Source of the DNA: Planctomycetota bacterium
GTDB lineage: Bacteria > Planctomycetota > UBA8108 > UBA1146
Direction: 5' to 3'
Length of the DNA: 64,000 nt
NCBI GenBank assembly: GCA_036338595.1
Contig: JAYZBV010000072.1
Span: forward strand, 1-64,000
Position 1 is the first letter of the stretch. Each line of letters begins with the position of its first letter. A program made the position numbers. Positions 15,001 to 33,000 of this stretch are shown piece by piece.

Positions 15001-18000
15001 TCAGTCGTTTGAGCCGCTTCTCTCTCAAACTCTGCGCCCGAGCACGAAGATCGACGACATCATCGTGTTCGTCGACCACCTCGATGCCAAGAATCGTCTC
15101 GAACAGGTCCTCAGTGGTGATGATGCCGCATGTGCCGCCATGTTCGTCCGCCACCATGGCGATGGGATCCTGGCCGCTGGTGAGATCGGCGAGAGCCTGG
15201 CGCAGGGTCGCCACCTCGGGTACGAACCGAATTTCCCTGCGAAACTGCACCAGGGGAGTCGTGCCGGGAGCTCCCTCGATGCTGGCTGACAGCACTTCTC
15301 GCAGCAGGACATAACCCGTGACCTCGTCCAGAGACTTGCCGTGAATGGGGATCCTGCTCGGTAGATGGCTTCTCTTGTTCTCGGCCAGAAGATCACCGAT
15401 GGTGGCATCTTGCCACAGATCCCACACCACGGTTCGCGGCGTCATCACATCTCCGACGTGGATCTCGTCGAGCCTGAGGATGTTGCGATAGAGTTCTCGT
15501 TCGTGGACGGCAAGAGTCCCATCGGTTCCAGCCATGTCAATCATCGCCTCGACCTCACCCCGTGAGACATGTTCTGTTGATTTGCTGCCGAAGATCCTCG
15601 TCAGAACGACGGTCAATCCCATCGCTGGCTTCATCACAGCGGTCAAGATGTGAAGGCAGACTCCGACGAATCCCGACAGCTTTCGTGCATGCACCGCGCC
15701 TAGCGTCTTCGGAATGATCTCGGCTCCGGTCAGGATCACAAAAGTGAAGAGCGCCGAGAATACTGCGACCCATGCGGGATACTCCTTGTGAACCAGGTAT
15801 CCGGCGATCGACGCTCCCATCGTGTTGGAAATGGTGTTGAGGATCAGCACTGCACTGATCGCCTCGTTGAGTCGATGCTTCTTCAGATCCAGCAGCCAGC
15901 GGATGCCGATGCTGCGCTCTCGGCGCTCTTCGAGGCTCGGGATCGAGACAGAGAAGAGGGTCGCCTCGAGCAGGGAACAGATGAAAGAGACGAAGACGGT
16001 CAGCGAGACGACACTGAGGAGAAGGGTCACGGGCCATCCATCCAGGAGAATTGAGCTTTGCTGGGGGCCATCATACCCGGTCTGCAGTGGCTCCCAAAAC
16101 GCTCCTCGCAGCGGGATCGGGGCCCAATCGATGGTTATCGGAACCACAGAGGCTTTGCACTTTACACTTTATAAAGTATGTGTCAGGCTTCTGCCGGCCC
16201 CATGCCCGGGCTCTGTTTGCATGCGATCGCGAGTGCCTCATCGAGTGGCACTCGTTGCTCGATTGTGGATGAGACGGGCGTGAGGGGATGATCGAGATGG
16301 GGGATTCCAGCCAATCCGGGTCATTCCGGAGCATCTGGCATGAACCCTGCACTGTCGATGTGATCGGGCCACTTCACCGGACTGTCCGGTGTCGCTGGAT
16401 CAGAGGGGAGAGCAGATGACACCTTCGACCCACGACCAGCGACCCTGCTCAAGTTTAATTTCGAGTCGAATCGGAATCTCGGGGACTGCAAATCTGTTCG
16501 CTGCGTTGGCACCGCAGCAGGAGTCGAGTTCGTGCAATCCAGTCCCGTCGCATGAAGAACAATTGGTGGGAAATTGGCGGTGCGCTGCAACTGCCGGTGG
16601 CAGTTGCTCATCCCAGGGGTGGAGTCGTTCACAACCAGCCTGTGGGCAAATCCAAGAGGTTGTGGCCCGGCAACCGGGCCAGGTCGGAAAGAGGGAGTCA
16701 TGGTGAATCAGGGTACGAGCCAGGGAATCGATGGTCCGCAACAGACCGGTGCTTCCATCGATCTGATCAAATTCTGGGATGAACTGGGATTTGGTGGGCG
16801 CGTCGGGGTGGGGGCGGCTCTCTTTTTCGTGGTCGCATTCATCTTCACTTCATCGATGAAGAACGATTGGATCGACATCCCTGTCGGCGATGTCGAACGC
16901 GACTTTGAACTCACCGAGATCCTCAAGGGCAAGCAGATCGATTTTCGCTTCAATGACGCGGGTGGCCTTCAGGTGCCGAGTATCCGCGCATCAGAGGTAT
17001 TTTCACTGCTTCACTCGAATACAGCGGCGGCTGATCAAGCGGATCCATTTGACTGGGTAGGTCAGTCTGGATCGCTGATCGACACTTCCAGGCAGCGAGA
17101 GCAGCGCTGGGAACGGTCGCAGATCGAGCAACTCGAGGAGGACCTTGCCCGCCTCGAGGGGGTCGACTCGGTGAGCGTGACACCCAATCGATCGATCGGA
17201 GCATCGGTGATTGCTTCGAGCCGCAAGATTACCGGTGTCAGCGTCCAGGTAGATCTCGATGCACAGCTGCGGCCCGCTGGACTCAGCCAGTCGATGGCGA
17301 TGTCGATTGCAATGCATGTTTCCGGGGCATACGGGGTTTCGACAGAGAAAGTCATCATCACGGATACCACCGGTCACTACTACGATCTCGACAATTCACA
17401 GGTGACAGCAGGGGATGTCGTGGAGAAGAAAAAAATCGTCGAACAGTATGTGGTTCGATACCTCTCGGCGATTTTTGATCCTGAGATGTTTCGTGTGGTC
17501 GTCGATGTGAGTCTGGCCAACCCGGTATTCGAGACGGTCGAGAAGTCAGGTTACATCCCGGGCAATAACCCGGTGGTGCCGGGTATCTACGATCTCCAGG
17601 AGCAGGTGGCTTCTTACTCACCAATTTCGGCACAGTTTGCGGACTCAGTGGTGACCAGAGCCACAGCTCAGCAGATTCCAGGCCGTACAGAAGCGGATCC
17701 CGCGATCGCAGGTGTTGAAGAGGTTGCGGTCACGGTGATGCTGGATCGTCAAGGCGCCATCGCCAGAGCCAGCGCCAACGGAGGCTACAGCCGCGGCACT
17801 GAAGCAGCCAGCGGGCAACGGAGCGTCGGGCAACTGCTGCGTGAGTTTACCGCCACGATCGTCGATGGCCTCACGTCTCACCTCAGGGTTCATGTCGGTA
17901 GCGATTCAGTGATCCAGGCCAGGGTGCTTCCCGTCAACTTCAAGGGTGTGCTCTCGACTGCTGAGCCGGTCAAGGTTCAGAGTCTGGCCAACGAAGAATT

Positions 18001-30000: not shown

Positions 30001-33000
30001 TCACTGAGAAAAATCGATATCCTCAATGACAAGAAGGCCAAGTCTCCCGACGAAGATTCTCTCAGAACTGCGATCAAAGAGTTCATCTATGATCAACTGG
30101 ATTATCGTGAGCAGGCGATCATCGAGGGCTACTACTTCCAGGGGAAGACGATGAAGTGCATCGGATTGAAACTCCATCTGTCAGAATCAAGAGTTTGTCA
30201 GCTTCACTCGCGGATCATGAGTCGATTGCGCCAGACCTGCGACAAGCACCGACTCGACTTCATGCAGGATTGACGATACTGGCGTCCAGGCGGCAGACGC
30301 CGTAACTTGACGCCATGAGCAACTCCGACCAGAGACCCACGGAACAACCGACGCCATCGGGCACCAAGCAACCCCTGCCGAGATGGGTGTTTCTTGTCGC
30401 AGTGTTGCTCGCTTCCCTCGCAGCATCCCAGTTCCTGATCCGTAGCTGGGCGCTGGTCGGATTCCCCCAGGAGATCCGCTACGGCGAGGCGGTCGTGCTC
30501 GATCAGGCACGCAGGGTGATGGCTGAGCCAGGCCTCTACCCCGAGATGGGCAAGGAGCCGTGGCTTCTCGACCAGTACGCACCCTTCTATCCATTTCTGG
30601 CTCACCTCACCGGAAAATTCGCCTCGTCACCCTTCGGTGGGGGGCGAGCCATCTCGTTGCTGGCGACTCTCCTCTCCGCCGTGATGCTGACGCTGATCGT
30701 GCGCAGATCATCGGGCCTGGCAGCTGGACTCCTCTGTGGGGCAGCGATGCTGACGATGATGGAGTTTCTTCGCTTCGGGTTCTTGATGAGGGTCGATCCC
30801 CTCGCATTGTCGCTGGCGATGGTCGGAGTCTGGTGCAACCTGCAGCAGAAAACACCGGTGAGAATCCTCGGCGCGGCGGCTTTCTTTATTGCCGTCTATA
30901 CCCGCCAGACGACGGTGGCACTACTTCTGGTGAGTTACATTCAGATGTGGCGGCAGGAGGGCCGAGGGGCGCTCCGTTGGCCCTTCTCATTGCTTGCGGT
31001 GGGGCTGCTCTTCTATGGTTTTCTTGTGGCGGCCACCGACGGTGCATTTCATCAGCACGCCGTGATGTCGAATCTGTTTCGCTTCGAGTGGGCAGAGGGA
31101 CTGAAGAAAGCATTTTCTGGTTTCATGCCCTGGAGAGCACCACTCTTCATCGGCATCTTCCTGGCATTGATCCCCGGCCCTGAATCGGGAGGAACCCGAT
31201 CTGGAAGGCCCCGCACCATCGGATTCCTGGCGATGGGACTGGCGCTGGGGTGCTGTGTCCCGGCGCTGAAGCAGTTCCTGGTGCCTGGCAGCGATCCGAC
31301 CGTGCTCCACTGGATCCTGTACGGACATGTTGTGCTGCTTGCCTATGCCGCCTGGATCACCATTCGCAGCGACGTCGGCAAGCTGGATGGCAGCAAGATC
31401 GATGGAATCCGGATCCTGATGGCTCTCGCATCGATGACCTTGATCGGGCGCATCGGTTCCGACCTGAACTACCTGTTCGAGGCGGGGATCCTGATGCTGC
31501 TGGTATGTGGAGAAGCGATGGGAAGGGTGGTACCACGGCGGGCTCTGATCATCTCATCGTTGCTGGCGATCCAGGTGCTGGGCGGTTTCTATCTCAGTGG
31601 TCTGCAGCTGGAGTTTCAGCCGGAGCGATTGCTGGAGATGAAGGAGCGCCATCGCATCACCGATCATCTCGAAGCGTATCCCGACCCGGTCCTCAGCGAG
31701 GAGCCATGGGCACTGGCACAAACTGGAAGACCTCTGGTGCTGGGGCCCTACACCGCAAGACAGATGTACGACATAGGCTTGTGGGACGGCAAGGACCTGA
31801 TCGCAGCTCTCGATGCCCAGAGATATTCCGCCATCGTTCGTGCCAAGCAGAGAAGCTGGGCAGGTGTGGAGCGTGACGAAAGTGGACATGTCATCATCGC
31901 TGCGGACGGACTGCCGGTGCCGTACTTTGGCCCCTGGACCTTCAACTCGGTCAGGTCGTTACCACAGGAGATCCAGCAAGCGATCGAGAGGAACTATCAG
32001 CAAGCACCGGGGACCACCATGATCGAGAGGGTGACGAAGTACTTTCTCGAAGGAAGAGAGATCTGGGTACCGATCCCTCGCTGATTCAGGAATCAGTCGA
32101 GGAACAGTTGTGGCTGCACGGTGGGGGTGCAGGAAAAAAGTGGCGGGGGTGCATCGGAATCGAACCGACCTACGACGTTGTTCGCGCCGCACCATGGGTT
32201 TGAAGCCCAGGAGGCCCACCAGGTGCCCATTCACCCCCGACGGACCTGAGAGTGTCCCAATTCATGCACGCGGGATCAAGTTGCTCGGTGATGTTACCGG
32301 AGATTACCCCAGTATTCGCACGCGGGTGGAACCCTCAGCAGGTCTCACCTCACCGATGATGCAGTGTCTCTGGACACTCTCTCGTTCCATCGTCTCTGCA
32401 AGAGCCCCGACGTTTTCAGGCGAGATGGCCATCAGTAGGCCTCCAGAAGTTTCTGAATCGAGAGCCAGATTGAGCAGGTGCGACGGTACATCACCGGACA
32501 ATTGCAGATGATCAGCGAGGTGGGCGCGGTTTCGTTTCGAGCCACCGGAGACCAGTTCCCTGCGAGCAAGATCTTCGGCTCCCGGCAGGATCGGCAGATC
32601 TGAAGCGACGATCTCCAGGGTCACGCCGCTGGCAGCGGCCATCTCGGCGGCGTGTCCACAAAGACCGAAGCCCGTGACATCGGTGACGGAATGTGCATCG
32701 AGTGCCTTCGCAACCTCTGCTGCAGCAGCGTTGAGGGTAGACATCGAGATGGTGGCAGCGCTCAGCACATCTGCATCCACCTGGCCCTTGTTGAGAGCAG
32801 TGCTCACGGTTCCTGTCCCCAGGGCTTTGGTGAGCACCAGGATGTCTCCGGCGCGGGCACCTCCGTTGGTGAGGATCTTCGCAGGATCGATGGTGCCGGT
32901 CACGGCGAGTCCATATTTCACCTCGGAGTCGCGGACACTATGTCCGCCCAGCAACGCGCAATTGGCCTCCACCATCTTCTCTGCTCCCCCGGCGAGGATC

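Follow-up and report, generated by a model that had tools for sequence, protein, structure and literature searches.

A flagellar ring and export core kept without a flagellum in small-genome marine bacteria: a possible relic controlling a sigma-28 circuit

The assembly checkpoint of Campylobacter jejuni needs, according to the available part of PMC3760246, FlhA, FlhB, FliP, FliR, FliF, the N-domain of FliG alone and FlhF; by itself this FliG domain supports signalling, which does not require a gate fully capable of secretion. In Legionella oakridgensis, FliA and FlgM are described as functioning without any flagellar apparatus, FlgM being seemingly degraded (PMC5655016, in part). Finally, the flagellar export genes retained by Lysobacter enzymogenes OH11 are reported to secrete non-flagellar proteins (PMC7688988, in part), and the same has been proposed for endosymbionts including Buchnera (PMC3246468, in part).

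The locus described here lies in a window (the whole 64,000-nucleotide stretch of planctomycete DNA that was analysed). Its retained parts coincide with the list of checkpoint requirements in the available text on C. jejuni (PMC3760246). In Lysobacter and Buchnera, rod, hook or ring parts remain and provide an exit path, as far as the available sections go (PMC7688988; PMC3246468); the stripped genomes considered here are without them.

The operon and its distribution in the family

A preliminary description had claimed a single flagellar export operon of 13 genes, located at the same site in three genera. Pfam and NCBIfam matches bear out the operon, and tblastn bears out its location, the order CNNM gene, operon, SelD-SelA being collinear in genera g1, g6 and g7 as far as the contigs extend. 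The features are as follows (window positions, strand in brackets):

14942-16147 (-): CNNM gene, upstream flank
16336..16351 (+): sigma-54-like motif TGGCATGAACCCTGCA, about 350 nt upstream of fliF; motif match only
16697-30273 (+): flagellar operon FliF-FliA, 13 genes; Pfam and NCBIfam
16697..18637 (+): FliF, MS-ring protein, 646 aa with putative fused FliG N-terminal remnant; YscJ_FliF E 8.7e-12
18203..18262 (+): FliF C-terminal helix, internal here; visual alignment with the end of FliF in G001 and G002
18281..18454 (+): putative FliG_N-like armadillo domain fused behind FliF; weak profile, HMM and Foldseek scores
18542..18598 (+): last helix of the FliF fusion, conserved, read by eye as a probable first helix of FliG_M
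18634..19428 (+): FliH; Pfam FliH E 1e-16
19329..20750 (+): FliI export ATPase (longest ORF; the real start is probably further downstream); ATP-synt_ab 6.9e-80, T3SS_ATPase_C 2.2e-20, TIGR01026 536 bits, above cut-off
20750..21208 (+): FliJ-like coiled coil, both scores slightly below cut-off; Pfam FliJ E 1.6e-5, 25.5 bits (cut-off 28.4), TIGR02473 47.1 bits (cut-off 50.45)
21247..21930 (+): FliO; Pfam FliO 5.3e-11
21927..22772 (+): FliP; Pfam FliP 2.3e-70, TIGR01103 fliP 220 bits, above cut-off
22715..23047 (+): FliQ; Bac_export_3 5.9e-23
23054..23887 (+): FliR; Bac_export_1 8.6e-56
23868..24728 (+): FlhB, membrane domain and linker only, 286 aa; Bac_export_2 positions 1-243 of 335
24725..26890 (+): FlhA; FHIPEP 4.1e-219, TIGR01398 697 bits
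26727..28373 (+): FlhF, SRP-type GTPase; SRP54 4.4e-39, TIGR03499 170.8 bits (cut-off 174.15)
28370..29254 (+): FlhG/FleN-type MinD-like ATPase, named FlhG by its position behind flhF; ParA/CbiA/AAA_31 and MinD-type models
29292..29307 (+): sigma-54-like promoter TGGCACG-N4-ATGCC before fliA; motif only
29428..30273 (+): FliA (sigma-28); TIGR02479 FliA_WhiG 221 bits (cut-off 189.6)
30315..32084 (+): putative GT-C fold membrane glycosyltransferase, from a structure model; co-conserved with the operon
32304-34822 (-): SelD/SelA, downstream flank

Six-frame family searches covered the 28 genomes of the family, all of them MAGs, and reproduced the earlier counts for Flg_bb_rod and Flagellin_N (4 of 28 each), for FliG_C (strong in four, with two further g7 matches that are marginal, E 0.003, in 475-aa frames) and for FliMN_C (above cut-off in five, namely the four flagellated genomes and G002, with one more at E 0.044). 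MotB_plug was matched in 4 of the 28 and FliE in five; the positives for the rod, flagellin, FliG_C and stator models are the same four genomes. CheW had no match in any of the 28, flagellated relatives included, so chemotaxis is absent from the latter as well. The earlier statement that nothing else of a flagellum is left in the window's genome needs correcting on account of a probable FliG_N remnant within FliF and a divergent flgM gene, both described below.

The stripped genomes number 23 (genera g1, g6 and g7), 14 of them with at least 90% completeness and at most 5% contamination; that of the window is 88.3% complete with 7.2% contamination. By tblastn, FlhA was matched in all 27 of the 27 fetched loci and FliI has 69-80% identity to g6 and g7; the FliJ-like gene gave no tblastn match in g7, where a gap of equal size is present. 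The flhB stop overlaps the flhA ATG (ATGA, 24725-24728), and FliR and FlhB form one in-frame fusion in seven relatives. G002 (genus g3), which has FliE, FliN, a FliG with N and M domains only, an FlhB of full length that lacks NPTH, and an FlgM recognised by Pfam, is an intermediate between the flagellated and the stripped state.

The gene at 30315-32084 starts 41 nt past fliA and has no Pfam or NCBIfam match. It stands behind fliA in g1, g6 and g7 wherever the locus reaches beyond fliA (19 loci), and a fragment of it is present in G002. The AF2 model of its product (pLDDT 70.6) has 13 PDB matches with E<=0.001, all GT-C enzymes (ArnT, PglB, AftA and OST), and its Atlas neighbours are PMT_2; on this structural likeness the gene, which is part of the conserved block, is a predicted GT-C glycosyltransferase.

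Selection, a probable FliF fusion and the docking sites

The operon genes are under purifying selection in three genera. Median dN/dS lies between 0.04 and 0.25 across all of them (FliF 0.15, FliH 0.13, FliI 0.05, FliJ-like 0.25, FliP 0.08, FlhB 0.22, FlhG 0.04, FliA 0.08), beside 0.07 and 0.15 for the housekeeping neighbours SelA and SelD, and the reading frames are intact, with no internal stops, in the 23 stripped genomes. In G001, fliG stands behind fliF, and fliK and flgD stand behind fliJ; here, the stop codon of fliF shares nucleotides with the start of fliH, and 38 nt lie between fliJ and fliO. The operon thus has clean excisions at the exact sites where relatives have fliG and the fliK-to-fliN genes. 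An artefact (missing genes on unbinned contigs) or a slow decay into a pseudogene cluster could be argued from the use of MAGs throughout and from the completeness and contamination of the window's genome. However, such an origin is highly improbable given the identical absences in 23 of 23 stripped genomes, the 14 more complete ones included, the deletions visible in the operon itself, and genes without stops whose dN/dS is far below 1. The preliminary claim that this is not decay stands on the same grounds.

Two RNA libraries, each from a different study, contain short contigs that match the operon; these may derive from DNA carry-over and give a weak hint of expression.

FliF of the window is some 65-125 aa longer than its counterparts of 580 aa in the flagellated G001 and 519 aa in G002, and the C-terminal helix, the FliG-binding motif of ordinary FliF, is internal here (18203..18262). 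For a profile of 16 FliF C-ends, the best two PDB matches are FliG residues 3-65 (E 8e-4). Pfam FliG_N gives E 0.074 on the FliF C-end, hhalign of the C-ends against the family's FliG gives E 0.002 with a probability of 14%, and Foldseek on a model of the C-end (pLDDT 67.6) places FliG at ranks 1-6 (E 0.13-0.6). The last helix (18542..18598) is conserved among the 16 aligned C-ends and resembles by eye the start of FliG_M in G001 and G002, the protein stopping before the remainder of that domain. Taken together, these several weak scores suggest that FliF carries a fused remnant of the FliG N-terminal domain.

The autocleaving C-terminal domain is absent from FlhB of the window, the profile match ending at position 243 of 335, and no separate FlhB C-terminal piece was found in its genome. 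The truncation is the same in 9/9 g1, 8/8 g7 and 4/6 g6 genomes. On a tree of five genes of the operon itself (quick search, root assumed on the flagellated genera), loss of FlhB_C requires at least four independent events if no regain is allowed; NPTH is already absent in G002, G015 and G017, three non-flagellated genomes in which FlhB_C is still present. The membrane and loop core of FlhA is nearly invariant across the family and its ion-coupling loop invariant; in g1 and g7, by contrast, the chaperone pocket of FlhA_C has a degenerate motif. Hence the known docking sites for flagellar substrates (FlhB_C and the FlhA_C pocket) are lost or degenerate, and the channel, the ATPase and the FlhA core are conserved.

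Conservation of the channel, FlhA and the ATPase complex under selection could fit a general export machine re-used for non-flagellar proteins across the inner membrane, like an early stage toward an injectisome, and Lysobacter and Buchnera lend it precedent (PMC7688988 and PMC3246468, as far as available). However, we consider this unlikely: there is no candidate cargo, both known docking sites have been lost or have degenerated, the block is without a rod, outer-membrane channel or needle gene, and the scores are of flagellar and not Sct type (FliP, TIGR01103 220 bits against 170 for SctR; FlhA, TIGR01398 697 bits against 573 for SctV). Nothing ties the operon to a needle or outer-membrane channel, and neither of the earlier labels (export-only type III machine; living example of the first step to the injectisome) is sustained as stated.

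The anti-sigma factor and the sigma-28 promoters

FlgM is the anti-sigma factor of sigma-28, and its export signal lies in the N-terminus. Directly upstream of a csaA-like gene, an ORF of 107 aa (G000:C55:14416-14736) holds the place occupied by the Pfam-positive FlgM in G001-G005. Its family aligns with the FlgM family in hhalign with a probability of 93.5% (E 2.2e-7), and its profile matches 22 of the 23 stripped genomes as well as the true FlgM of G002 (E 1.7e-6) and G001 (E 1.2e-5). The few parts of it that do not vary include the N-terminus (M1, G8, G10). By homology the ORF encodes a divergent FlgM, the predicted partner of FliA.

The sigma-28 promoter of flgM (T-tract, CT(C/A)AAG(T/A/G), 15-16 nt, CGA(T/A/C/G)) is kept in 22/22 loci from all seven genera. 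Further sigma-28 promoters precede a membrane PilZ gene, in the window's genome, 5/5 sampled stripped genomes and at least 2/3 flagellated ones, and pilQ, in the window's genome and in 4/4 of the stripped loci sampled whose sequence reaches upstream; in G001-G005, 5/5 likewise keep the -10 element of the pilQ promoter, (G/A)CCGATA. PilQ is the type IV pilus secretin, and PilZ a c-di-GMP receptor type. The conservation comparison covered 2 of the 11 intergenic promoter candidates, and because the genomes compared are related, upstream motifs shared among them do not count as independent evidence. Across the genome, the strict pattern occurs 12 times (4-11 in five shuffles) and a looser one 114 times (52-68), counts that do not clearly exceed chance.

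As to sigma-54, the 16-mer upstream of fliF is identical in 6/6 g1 loci examined; in g7, TGGCA(C/T)G-N4-CTGC occurs at -93 to -112 in 4/4 loci, and in g6 the sigma-54-like regex had no match upstream of fliF in 5/5 loci. Before fliA, inspection by eye shows a GG-N10-GC type motif at the same position in the loci of g1 and g6, and a variant of it in g7. In each stripped genome searched there are 13 matches to sigma-54 activators, none a clear orthologue of the operon-linked activator of G001/G002; neither a sensor kinase nor an activator could be assigned.

A possible role for the retained core

A flgM gene with its sigma-28 promoter, together with FliA-type promoters before pilQ and the PilZ gene, indicates a regulatory role. 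We therefore give about an even chance to the MS ring and export gate being a regulatory relic, kept as a control device of the sigma-28 circuit and not as a builder or general secretion system. The FliF-FliG_N fusion would form the MS ring around a FliOPQR channel, with FlhB lacking its switch domain, FlhA and the FliH/I/J ATPase complex. FlhF, the GTPase that places polar flagella, and FlhG would position this remaining complex. FliA would drive pilQ, the membrane PilZ gene and flgM, non-flagellar targets having been in its regulon since the flagellated ancestor, and the divergent FlgM would hold FliA. The core would then control the activity of FliA along two routes, singly or together: (a) by pumping FlgM from the cytoplasm, into the periplasm given that there is no rod; or (b) by its own assembly, a checkpoint that would switch on the sigma-54 promoter of fliA as in C. 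jejuni. FlgM export, complex assembly and signalling by the complex are steps that we infer.

FlhB_C is required for export in model systems, where a non-cleaving FlhB stops FlgM and other late substrates; lacking this domain, the gate may export nothing, which favours the checkpoint (b) over FlgM export (a). Taken to its end, this becomes a pure scaffold that exports nothing: a polar FliF-FliG_N ring and gate, placed by FlhF/FlhG, would be sensed by a kinase or activator, sigma-54-dependent fliA turned on and FlgM proteolysed. Besides the loss of FlhB_C with its NPTH site and the degenerate FlhA_C pocket, this agrees with the sigma-54-like motif before fliA, with signalling in C. jejuni by the FliG N-domain alone and a gate not fully competent for secretion (PMC3760246, in part), and with the apparent degradation, not secretion, of FlgM in L. 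oakridgensis (PMC5655016, in part). However, a pure scaffold seems to us rather unlikely, as FliI, FliH and FliJ, which serve export energy and chaperoning, are among the best conserved parts (dN/dS 0.05, 0.13 and 0.25), FlhA has an invariant ion-coupling loop, FlgM has a conserved N-terminus and the genomes searched yielded no sensor. Such conservation of FliH/I/J is more readily expected of an exporter than of a pure scaffold, and each route thus leaves something unexplained. Moreover, to judge from the available text, L. oakridgensis runs FliA/FlgM without an apparatus, so the pair does not strictly require an export gate (PMC5655016).

Retention of FlhF and FlhG, the invariant FlhA core and the presence of pilus genes within the same regulon might also suit a structural or physiological role unrelated to sigma-28, such as a polar landmark for pili or organelles, or an ion-conducting FlhA for membrane energetics. 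This is distinctly doubtful, however, because it leaves unexplained why FliA, FlgM and the promoter are kept alongside the gate in 22 of 23 genomes.

Flagellar reduction as such was already known. In the small-genome marine bacteria described here, the flagellum is lost and the membrane core, the sigma factor and the anti-sigma factor are kept, and this core apparently works as a switch over type IV pilus genes.

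The operon and the parts absent from it

The operon from fliF to fliA is a real, selected and unusually minimal remnant of a flagellum. Its genes had been named in the preliminary description as FliF, FliH, FliI, a FliJ-like coiled coil, FliO, FliP, FliQ, FliR, FlhB, FlhA, FlhF, a MinD-like FlhG and FliA, and Pfam and NCBIfam models led to the same names. Gene neighbours mostly overlap or lie at most 41 nt apart, the single larger gap (173 nt) being the one before fliA.

16697-30273, + strand: operon fliF-fliA, flagellar export core with FlhF, FlhG and FliA
30315-32084, + strand: gene for a membrane glycosyltransferase of the GT-C fold, 589 aa, 41 nt 3' of fliA

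The channel of FliP, FliQ and FliR is all there (Pfam FliP 2.3e-70, Bac_export_3 5.9e-23 and Bac_export_1 8.6e-56, with TIGR01103 fliP above its cut-off). FlhA (FHIPEP 4.1e-219) covers profile positions 1-654 of 657 and could be aligned with residues 28-678 of a solved FlhA chain of 692 aa. The FliH-FliI-FliJ ATPase complex is complete: FliH matched at 1e-16, FliI scored 536 bits with TIGR01026 (above cut-off), and FliJ fell slightly below its cut-offs. FliA scored 221.1 bits with TIGR02479 FliA_WhiG (cut-off 189.6), and regions r2, r3 and r4 of Sigma70 were all found in it.

Injectisomes, which according to Abby and Rocha in 2012 reportedly derive from the flagellum through the loss of motility parts, resemble this operon in having an export core without motor or filament. 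However, no link to a secretin, needle or translocon exists here, there is no C-terminal domain of the SctU type, and the flagellar models outscore the Sct models: 697 bits against 573 for SctV in the case of FlhA, 220 against 170 for SctR in that of FliP, and 148 against 99 for SctT in that of FliR, with FlhB a tie (145.1 flagellar, 145.2 SctU).

The GT-C gene follows fliA wherever a locus reaches past fliA in genera g1 (to which the window's genome belongs), g6 and g7, and a fragment of it is found in g3; it is probably co-transcribed with fliA. Its protein matched no family in Pfam or NCBIfam. The model of its structure (pLDDT 70.6) had 13 PDB matches at E<=0.001, all of them GT-C glycosyltransferases (e.g., ArnT and PglB), and its Atlas neighbours were PMT_2. 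Some GT-C enzymes glycosylate pilins, and a role in pilin glycosylation would fit the link between sigma-28 and pili described below; this is pure speculation.

The operon has identical flanks in g1, g6 and g7, namely CNNM at its fliF end and SelD-SelA at the opposite end. The SelD frame of the window (32304-33074, - strand) has merely 256 aa, and its AIRS N-domain match begins at profile position 50; many selD genes carry an in-frame TGA for selenocysteine, and this one probably extends upstream through such a codon. Between CNNM and fliF, g6 and g7 loci (L053-L055, L058, L059, L061 and L065) share a conserved motif that is not present in g1, CACTTTACACTTTATAAAG(C/T)ATGTGTCAC, which may be the site of a regulator or the promoter of CNNM. 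FliR and FlhB are naturally fused, in a single uninterrupted frame of 541-649 aa, in loci L045, L046, L052, L053, L057, L048 and L065 (genomes G012, G013, G014, G015, G019, G002 and G027, respectively); in the window, the two genes stand in different frames and share 20 nt.

The family's 28 genomes were searched in six frames, and the absence counts reported earlier were recovered. The stripped genomes, that is, those of g1 (9), g6 (6) and g7 (8), number 23, of which 14 have a completeness of >=90% and a contamination of <=5%.

Flagellar and chemotaxis models in the 28 genomes of family UBA1146
Flg_bb_rod: 4/28 genomes; 0/23 stripped
Flagellin_N: 4/28 genomes; 0/23 stripped
FliG_C, strong matches: 4/28 genomes
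MotB_plug: 4/28 genomes
FliE: 5/28 genomes, none stripped
FliMN_C, above cut-off: 5/28 genomes, none in g1, g6 or g7
CheW: 0/28 genomes

The positives are always the same four flagellated genomes (G001 and G003-G005), joined for FliE and FliMN_C by G002, the intermediate genome of genus g3. Since CheW is missing from the flagellated genomes as well, the absence of chemotaxis is not peculiar to the stripped ones; the flagellated relatives apparently swim with no chemotaxis system of the classical kind. Two g7 genomes have 475-aa frames with marginal matches to FliG_C (E 0.003; G021:C26:52534-52683 and G022:C12:26811-26960), which may be proteins like MgtE, the N-domain of which is akin to FliG.

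In the flagellated G001, the gene order is flgB/C, fliE, fliF, fliG, fliH, fliI, fliJ, an unnamed gene, fliK, flgD onward, and then fliO to fliA. In the window, the stop of fliF overlaps the start of fliH, and fliO lies 38 nt after fliJ. Comparison of the G001 order with these closed-up junctions indicates that the missing genes were cut out from within the operon, and the layout of the operon is evidence for gene loss that does not depend on genome completeness.

Selection was estimated as the median dN/dS over close pairs within genera, after misaligned or saturated pairs had been filtered out.

Median dN/dS of operon genes and neighbours
FlhG: 0.04
FliI: 0.05
FliP: 0.08
FliR: 0.08
FliA: 0.08
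GT-C gene: 0.12
FliH: 0.13
FliQ: 0.13
FliF: 0.15
FlhA: 0.15
FlhF: 0.19
FliO: 0.21
FlhB: 0.22
FliJ: 0.25
SelA (neighbour): 0.07
CNNM (neighbour): 0.14
SelD (neighbour): 0.15

An artefact or a decaying operon is a very improbable explanation.

FlhB, FlhA and FliF

The FlhB of the window has 286 aa, which cover profile positions 1-243 of 335, and its stop overlaps the start of flhA; no separate piece corresponding to its C-terminal cytoplasmic switch domain (FlhB_C) was found in the window's genome. FlhB is truncated in 21 of the 23 stripped genomes (9/9 in g1, 8/8 in g7 and 4/6 in g6) and full-length in G015 and G017 of g6, in G002 and in the four flagellated genomes. The TNPTH autocleavage site is canonical in the flagellated genomes, and unrelated residues occupy it in G002, G017 and G015. 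The full-length FlhB of these three, being without NPTH, suggests that the autocleavage site decayed before the domain was deleted. The part of FlhB that remains is under purifying selection (median dN/dS in the table).

A quick IQ-TREE search (LG+G4) on five operon proteins (FliP, FliR, FlhA, FlhG and FliA), rooted on the flagellated genera, gave the topology (flagellated), (g3, (g7, (g6, g1))) and, inside g6, G017, ((G015, G016), (G018, (G014, G019))). On this tree, which was built from the operon's own genes with an assumed root and in which the join of g6 and g1 has an SH-aLRT of 87, FlhB_C would have been deleted separately at least four times (in g7; in g1; in G016; and in G018, G014 and G019 together), if a lost domain is never regained. 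A word-based search for FlhB in 5.8 billion proteins returned just 21 matches at E<=1e-10, a number that carries no information on how widely the truncation occurs elsewhere; the truncated forms among them belong to close kin only. An FlhB 54% identical to that of the window comes from an NCBI record named as a Planctomycetota MAG.

The membrane and loop core of FlhA is nearly invariant throughout the family. In the alignment with the solved 692-aa chain, three positions of its C-terminal cytoplasmic domain (FlhA_C) fall on D456, F459 and T490, which we take to form the chaperone pocket. The FlhA_C motifs EPAFG and ATHL at these positions are intact in g3 and the flagellated genomes, have degenerated in g1 and g7, and survive in part in g6. 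Both known landing sites for flagellar cargo, FlhB_C and the FlhA_C pocket, are lost or degenerate, whereas ATPase, channel and energy-coupling part have been retained. The retained parts could be those of an exporter of some non-flagellar cargo; with the landing sites for flagellar cargo in this state, we regard such an exporter as quite unlikely.

FliF has gained rather than lost length: it has 646 aa in the window, where G001 has 580 and G002 has 519. In the window's protein, the second membrane helix is followed by a stretch like the C-end of an ordinary FliF and then by a helical domain that is conserved. From each of the 23 stripped genomes, the last 175 residues of FliF were taken, and 16 of these sequences were aligned into a profile, whose two best matches among PDB sequences were FliG residues 3-65 (E 8e-4). 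Other scores for the extra domain were weak (Pfam FliG_N, the N domain of FliG, E 0.074; hhalign against the family's own FliG, E 0.002 and probability 14%), and the FliG structures that Foldseek placed at ranks 1-6 for its AlphaFold model (pLDDT 67.6) had non-significant values (E 0.13-0.6). In the relatives, fliG adjoins fliF with overlapping stop and start, and the helical domain occupies that very place, directly behind the C-terminal motif of FliF. Position and individually weak scores together make a natural FliF-FliG_N fusion likely. The middle and C domains, FliG_M and FliG_C, had no match in the window's FliF, which ends about 60 residues after the N-domain; one more conserved helix, which looks by eye like the one that opens the FliG middle domain, closes the protein. 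G002 represents the preceding step, with a separate FliG of 234 aa that consists of the N and M domains alone (FliG_M E 6e-6, FliG_N E 0.0012), together with FliN, FliE and FlgM.

Engineered or mutant FliF-FliG fusions still form rings according to extracts of PMC10941966 and PMC11481574, so an in-frame FliF-FliG is able to form an MS ring. The laboratory fusions in those extracts carry the whole of FliG in motile strains, whereas the fusion in the window is natural and its FliG is cut at the start of the middle domain.

The preliminary description had held that no flagellar part exists beyond the export core. As regards rod, flagellin, FliG_C, FliM/FliN and the stator protein MotB, this stands. 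FliG is probably not wholly gone, given its likely N-domain remnant on FliF, and a homologue of FlgM was found.

FlgM and the sigma-28-type and sigma-54-like promoter motifs

The Pfam FlgM model matched only in the four flagellated genomes and G002, and in these five flgM lies directly 5' of a csaA-like tRNA-binding gene. The same place in the window's genome holds a 107-aa open reading frame (G000:C55:14416-14736), and either this frame or FlgM stands immediately upstream of the csaA-like gene in 23/23 loci compared. The 107-aa protein matched no Pfam family, even at E 10. The gene was reached via its neighbour csaA; a tblastn search of the window's genome with the FlgM of G002 gave no real match (best E 0.73). 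As a single query, the 107-aa protein found intact frames in 18 of the 28 genomes. As a profile, its family found 24 of the 28, namely 22 of the 23 stripped genomes (G010 being without it) together with the genuine flgM of G002 and that of G001, at the places matched by Pfam. Against the Pfam-positive FlgM family, hhalign gave a probability of 93.5% and an E-value of 2.2e-7 over the C-terminal 57 columns. The N-terminus (M1, G8 and G10) is one of the few stretches of the family without variation, and the gene's dN/dS has a median of 0.23, with values of 0.03-0.54 over 6 of the 8 pairs. These comparisons indicate that FlgM is still there in the stripped genomes; its binding and inhibition of FliA, like its export by the gate, are predicted. 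Complex predictions of FliA with the FlgM-like protein scored 0.68, 0.05 and 0.00 (median 0.05) and count neither for nor against the pairing.

A promoter motif precedes flgM in all 22 loci with sufficient upstream sequence, which come from all seven genera. It consists of a T-tract, CT(C/A)AAG(T/A/G), 15-16 nt and CGA(T/A/C/G), lies about 100-185 nt upstream of flgM, and is presumably of the sigma-28 type. The sequences upstream of eight flagellin genes from the flagellated relatives had no match to the canonical TAAA-N13-18-CGA(T/A)A, and for this reason the family motif was taken from flgM. Of these flagellin genes, flaA lies directly behind another gene, and flaB has, by eye alone, a -10 element of the type CCGA(A/T)G. 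The gene directly 5' of flaA (loci L097, L099, L101 and L103 of G001 and G003-G005) is small and conserved, and its product looks CsrA-like by eye.

In the window's genome, the strict pattern occurred 12 times (4-11 times in five mononucleotide shuffles) and a looser one 114 times (52-68), counts that are not clearly above chance; the majority of the matches lie inside genes. With the T-tract added, the flgM promoter was nearly the sole match. As genome-wide counts were weak, the conservation of single sites was used in their place, and it was compared for two of the 11 intergenic candidates, those of a PilZ gene and of pilQ; PrkA, two MlaD-like genes, a sulfatase and others make up the rest. 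Their matches include G000:C73:47957-47983 (+ strand), upstream of the PrkA-type kinase gene, and sites on contigs C31 and C69 (MlaD-like) and C48 (sulfatase) of the same genome.

The PilZ gene encodes a 358-aa membrane protein (PilZ domain E 1.3e-10), and its promoter, 40-50 nt upstream, is present in the window's genome and in 5/5 stripped genomes sampled; it is clear in G001 and G005 and less so in G003. The secretin gene pilQ belongs to the pilM-N-O-P-Q cluster of a type IV pilus. It has a -35 element and the -10 element CCGATA in the window's genome and in the 4/4 sampled stripped loci having upstream sequence, and (G/A)CCGATA recurs in 5/5 of G001-G005. The recurrence of these PilZ-gene and pilQ sites among G001-G005 suggests that non-flagellar targets of FliA predate the loss of the flagellum. 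Between the sigma-28-like promoter of the PilZ gene (on contig G000:C41) and the start codon, an element GGAATGTTCCG(G/T)G is conserved in 6/6 genomes (L105 and L113-L117) and may be a leader or an operator.

A motif resembling a sigma-54 promoter lies in the operon itself:

29292-29307, + strand: sigma-54-like motif TGGCAC-N5-(T/A)TGC, 5' of fliA, in g1 and g6, with a variant in g7

Similar motifs were found upstream of fliF in g1 and g7, and none was found there in g6. A sigma-54 activator gene adjoins the flagellar operon in G002 (L069:7934-9163, - strand) and in G001 (G001:C10:67883-68875). Among the 13 activator matches per stripped genome searched, there was no clear orthologue of this operon-linked activator.

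Short contigs matching the operon occur in two RNA libraries from two studies, with small word shares (0.05-0.06). The library labelled marine had, among those listed, 8 pieces of 151-234 nt with 0-6 mismatches; the one labelled hydrothermal vent had, likewise among those listed, 8 pieces of 299-562 nt whose 9-43 mismatches indicate that they come from a relative. Runs X3 and X4 yielded scraps of 18-34 nt alone. Contigs from RNA libraries are no proof of transcription, and the operon parts that they leave uncovered are uninformative.

The function of the export core

From the gene content and promoters, a regulatory function appears better supported than a secretory one. We propose, at about even chances, that the export core is retained as the control of the FliA-FlgM circuit. 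FliA would be indispensable as the driver of pilus and PilZ genes, FlgM would be kept as the brake on FliA, and the membrane core would be kept because it controls this pair. The control could take either of two routes.

In the first, the gate would pump FlgM into the periplasm. The conservation of the ATPase complex and of the FlgM N-terminus speaks for this route; against it, FlhB_C is required for export in model systems. It is rather doubtful that the gate is still a type III exporter, at least for FlgM, without FlhB_C, the rod, or any C ring beyond the fused FliG N-domain.

In the second, the assembled core would be a checkpoint that switches on the sigma-54 promoter of fliA. According to extracts of Boll and Hendrixson 2013 (PMC3760246), the checkpoint of C. 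jejuni, in which the export gate with FliF and FliG is sensed by FlgS, needs the gate proteins, FliF, the FliG N-domain and FlhF, and is followed by a sigma-54 step. The retained parts nearly equal this list: the required gate proteins, FliF, the FliG N-domain (with weak scores here) and FlhF are all among the genes of the window. However, C. jejuni, in the same extracts, builds a full flagellum, so that its checkpoint is an assembly step, and nothing follows in the stripped genomes; in the stripped genomes, the search for sigma-54 activators yielded no counterpart of FlgS/FlgR, and it is fliA that the sigma-54-like motif precedes. Against this route speaks that this search gave no sensor to assign. 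A pure checkpoint with no export at all would draw on the same likeness and meet the same objection, and we consider it unlikely.

Control of FliA and FlgM by the core is no logical necessity, since the pair works without any apparatus in Legionella oakridgensis. There, as described in part of a review (PMC5655016), FliA-FlgM exists without any flagellar system, and FlgM is apparently degraded. The likeness is that sigma-28 and FlgM outlive the flagellum and control other genes, with flgM dependent on sigma-28; the difference is that no export apparatus is present there, whereas 22/23 genomes here retain the export core along with the pair. That the core has some other role is, in our judgement, improbable.

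The proposed control of pilus genes through FliA has a parallel in Lysobacter enzymogenes OH11, which has no flagellum and in which removing flhA, flhB, fliI or fliR abolishes twitching (extracts of PMC7277350 and PMC7688988). Flagellar export genes are thus retained in OH11 without a flagellum and tied to type IV pili; the tie in the stripped genomes runs, by inference, via sigma-28 promoters. Unlike the stripped genomes, OH11 has, according to the same extracts, genes for hook, rod, L/P ring, FliN and FlgD at scattered sites instead of in a single operon, and it secretes proteins into the medium.

The most extreme reduction in an endosymbiont, that of Buchnera aphidicola BCc, keeps fliF-I, fliN-R, flhAB and flgFHI (an extract of PMC3246468, citing Toft and Fares 2008). 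As here, the flagellum was reduced towards an MS ring and export apparatus, with no filament, and kept within shrinking genomes; according to that extract, though, Buchnera is intracellular and still has FliG and FliN along with a rod protein and the L/P rings. The stripped genomes, in contrast, have no rod, rings or FliN, keep FliG as a fused N-domain, have for the most part deleted FlhB_C, and keep FlhF, FlhG, FliA and FlgM. Both BCc and OH11 are less reduced, and neither the loss of FlhB_C nor a FliF-FliG_N fusion is described for them in the portions cited (PMC3246468, PMC7277350 and PMC7688988). Searches of mostly open-access papers on Planctomycetes flhA/fliF, truncated FlhB and UBA1146 found no published description of this reduced system.

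Reduction to an export core (in endosymbionts and Lysobacter) and the regulatory use of such a core (from Campylobacter genetics) were already known. The present case is the most extreme natural flagellar reduction found in the literature searched, and its bearers appear to be free-living marine Planctomycetota; the phylum is that of the NCBI record and of Atlas taxa, and the matching RNA libraries are labelled marine and hydrothermal vent. The stripped genomes have about 3 Mb. The family can be read as a natural deletion series, from the full flagellum to g3 (FliE, FliG N and M domains, FliN and an uncleavable FlhB), to some g6 genomes with a degenerate FlhB_C, and to g1, g7 and the other g6 genomes, in which FlhB_C is gone. 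The series raises the questions of whether export or signalling can do without FlhB_C, whether a C ring is required, and why regulators can lock cells into keeping a costly membrane machine. The link between a flagellar sigma factor and type IV pili in Planctomycetota also becomes testable. If the gate does export FlgM, it would, with FliF-FliG_N, FliOPQR, the membrane part of FlhB, FlhA and FliHIJ, be the smallest known type III export machine in nature and, in free-living cells, a "secretion-coupled gene switch" for the timing of type IV pilus genes. A supposedly indispensable switch domain could then be shed repeatedly once one substrate class is left, and these bacteria would provide a living model of the possible activity of a pre-flagellar export core.
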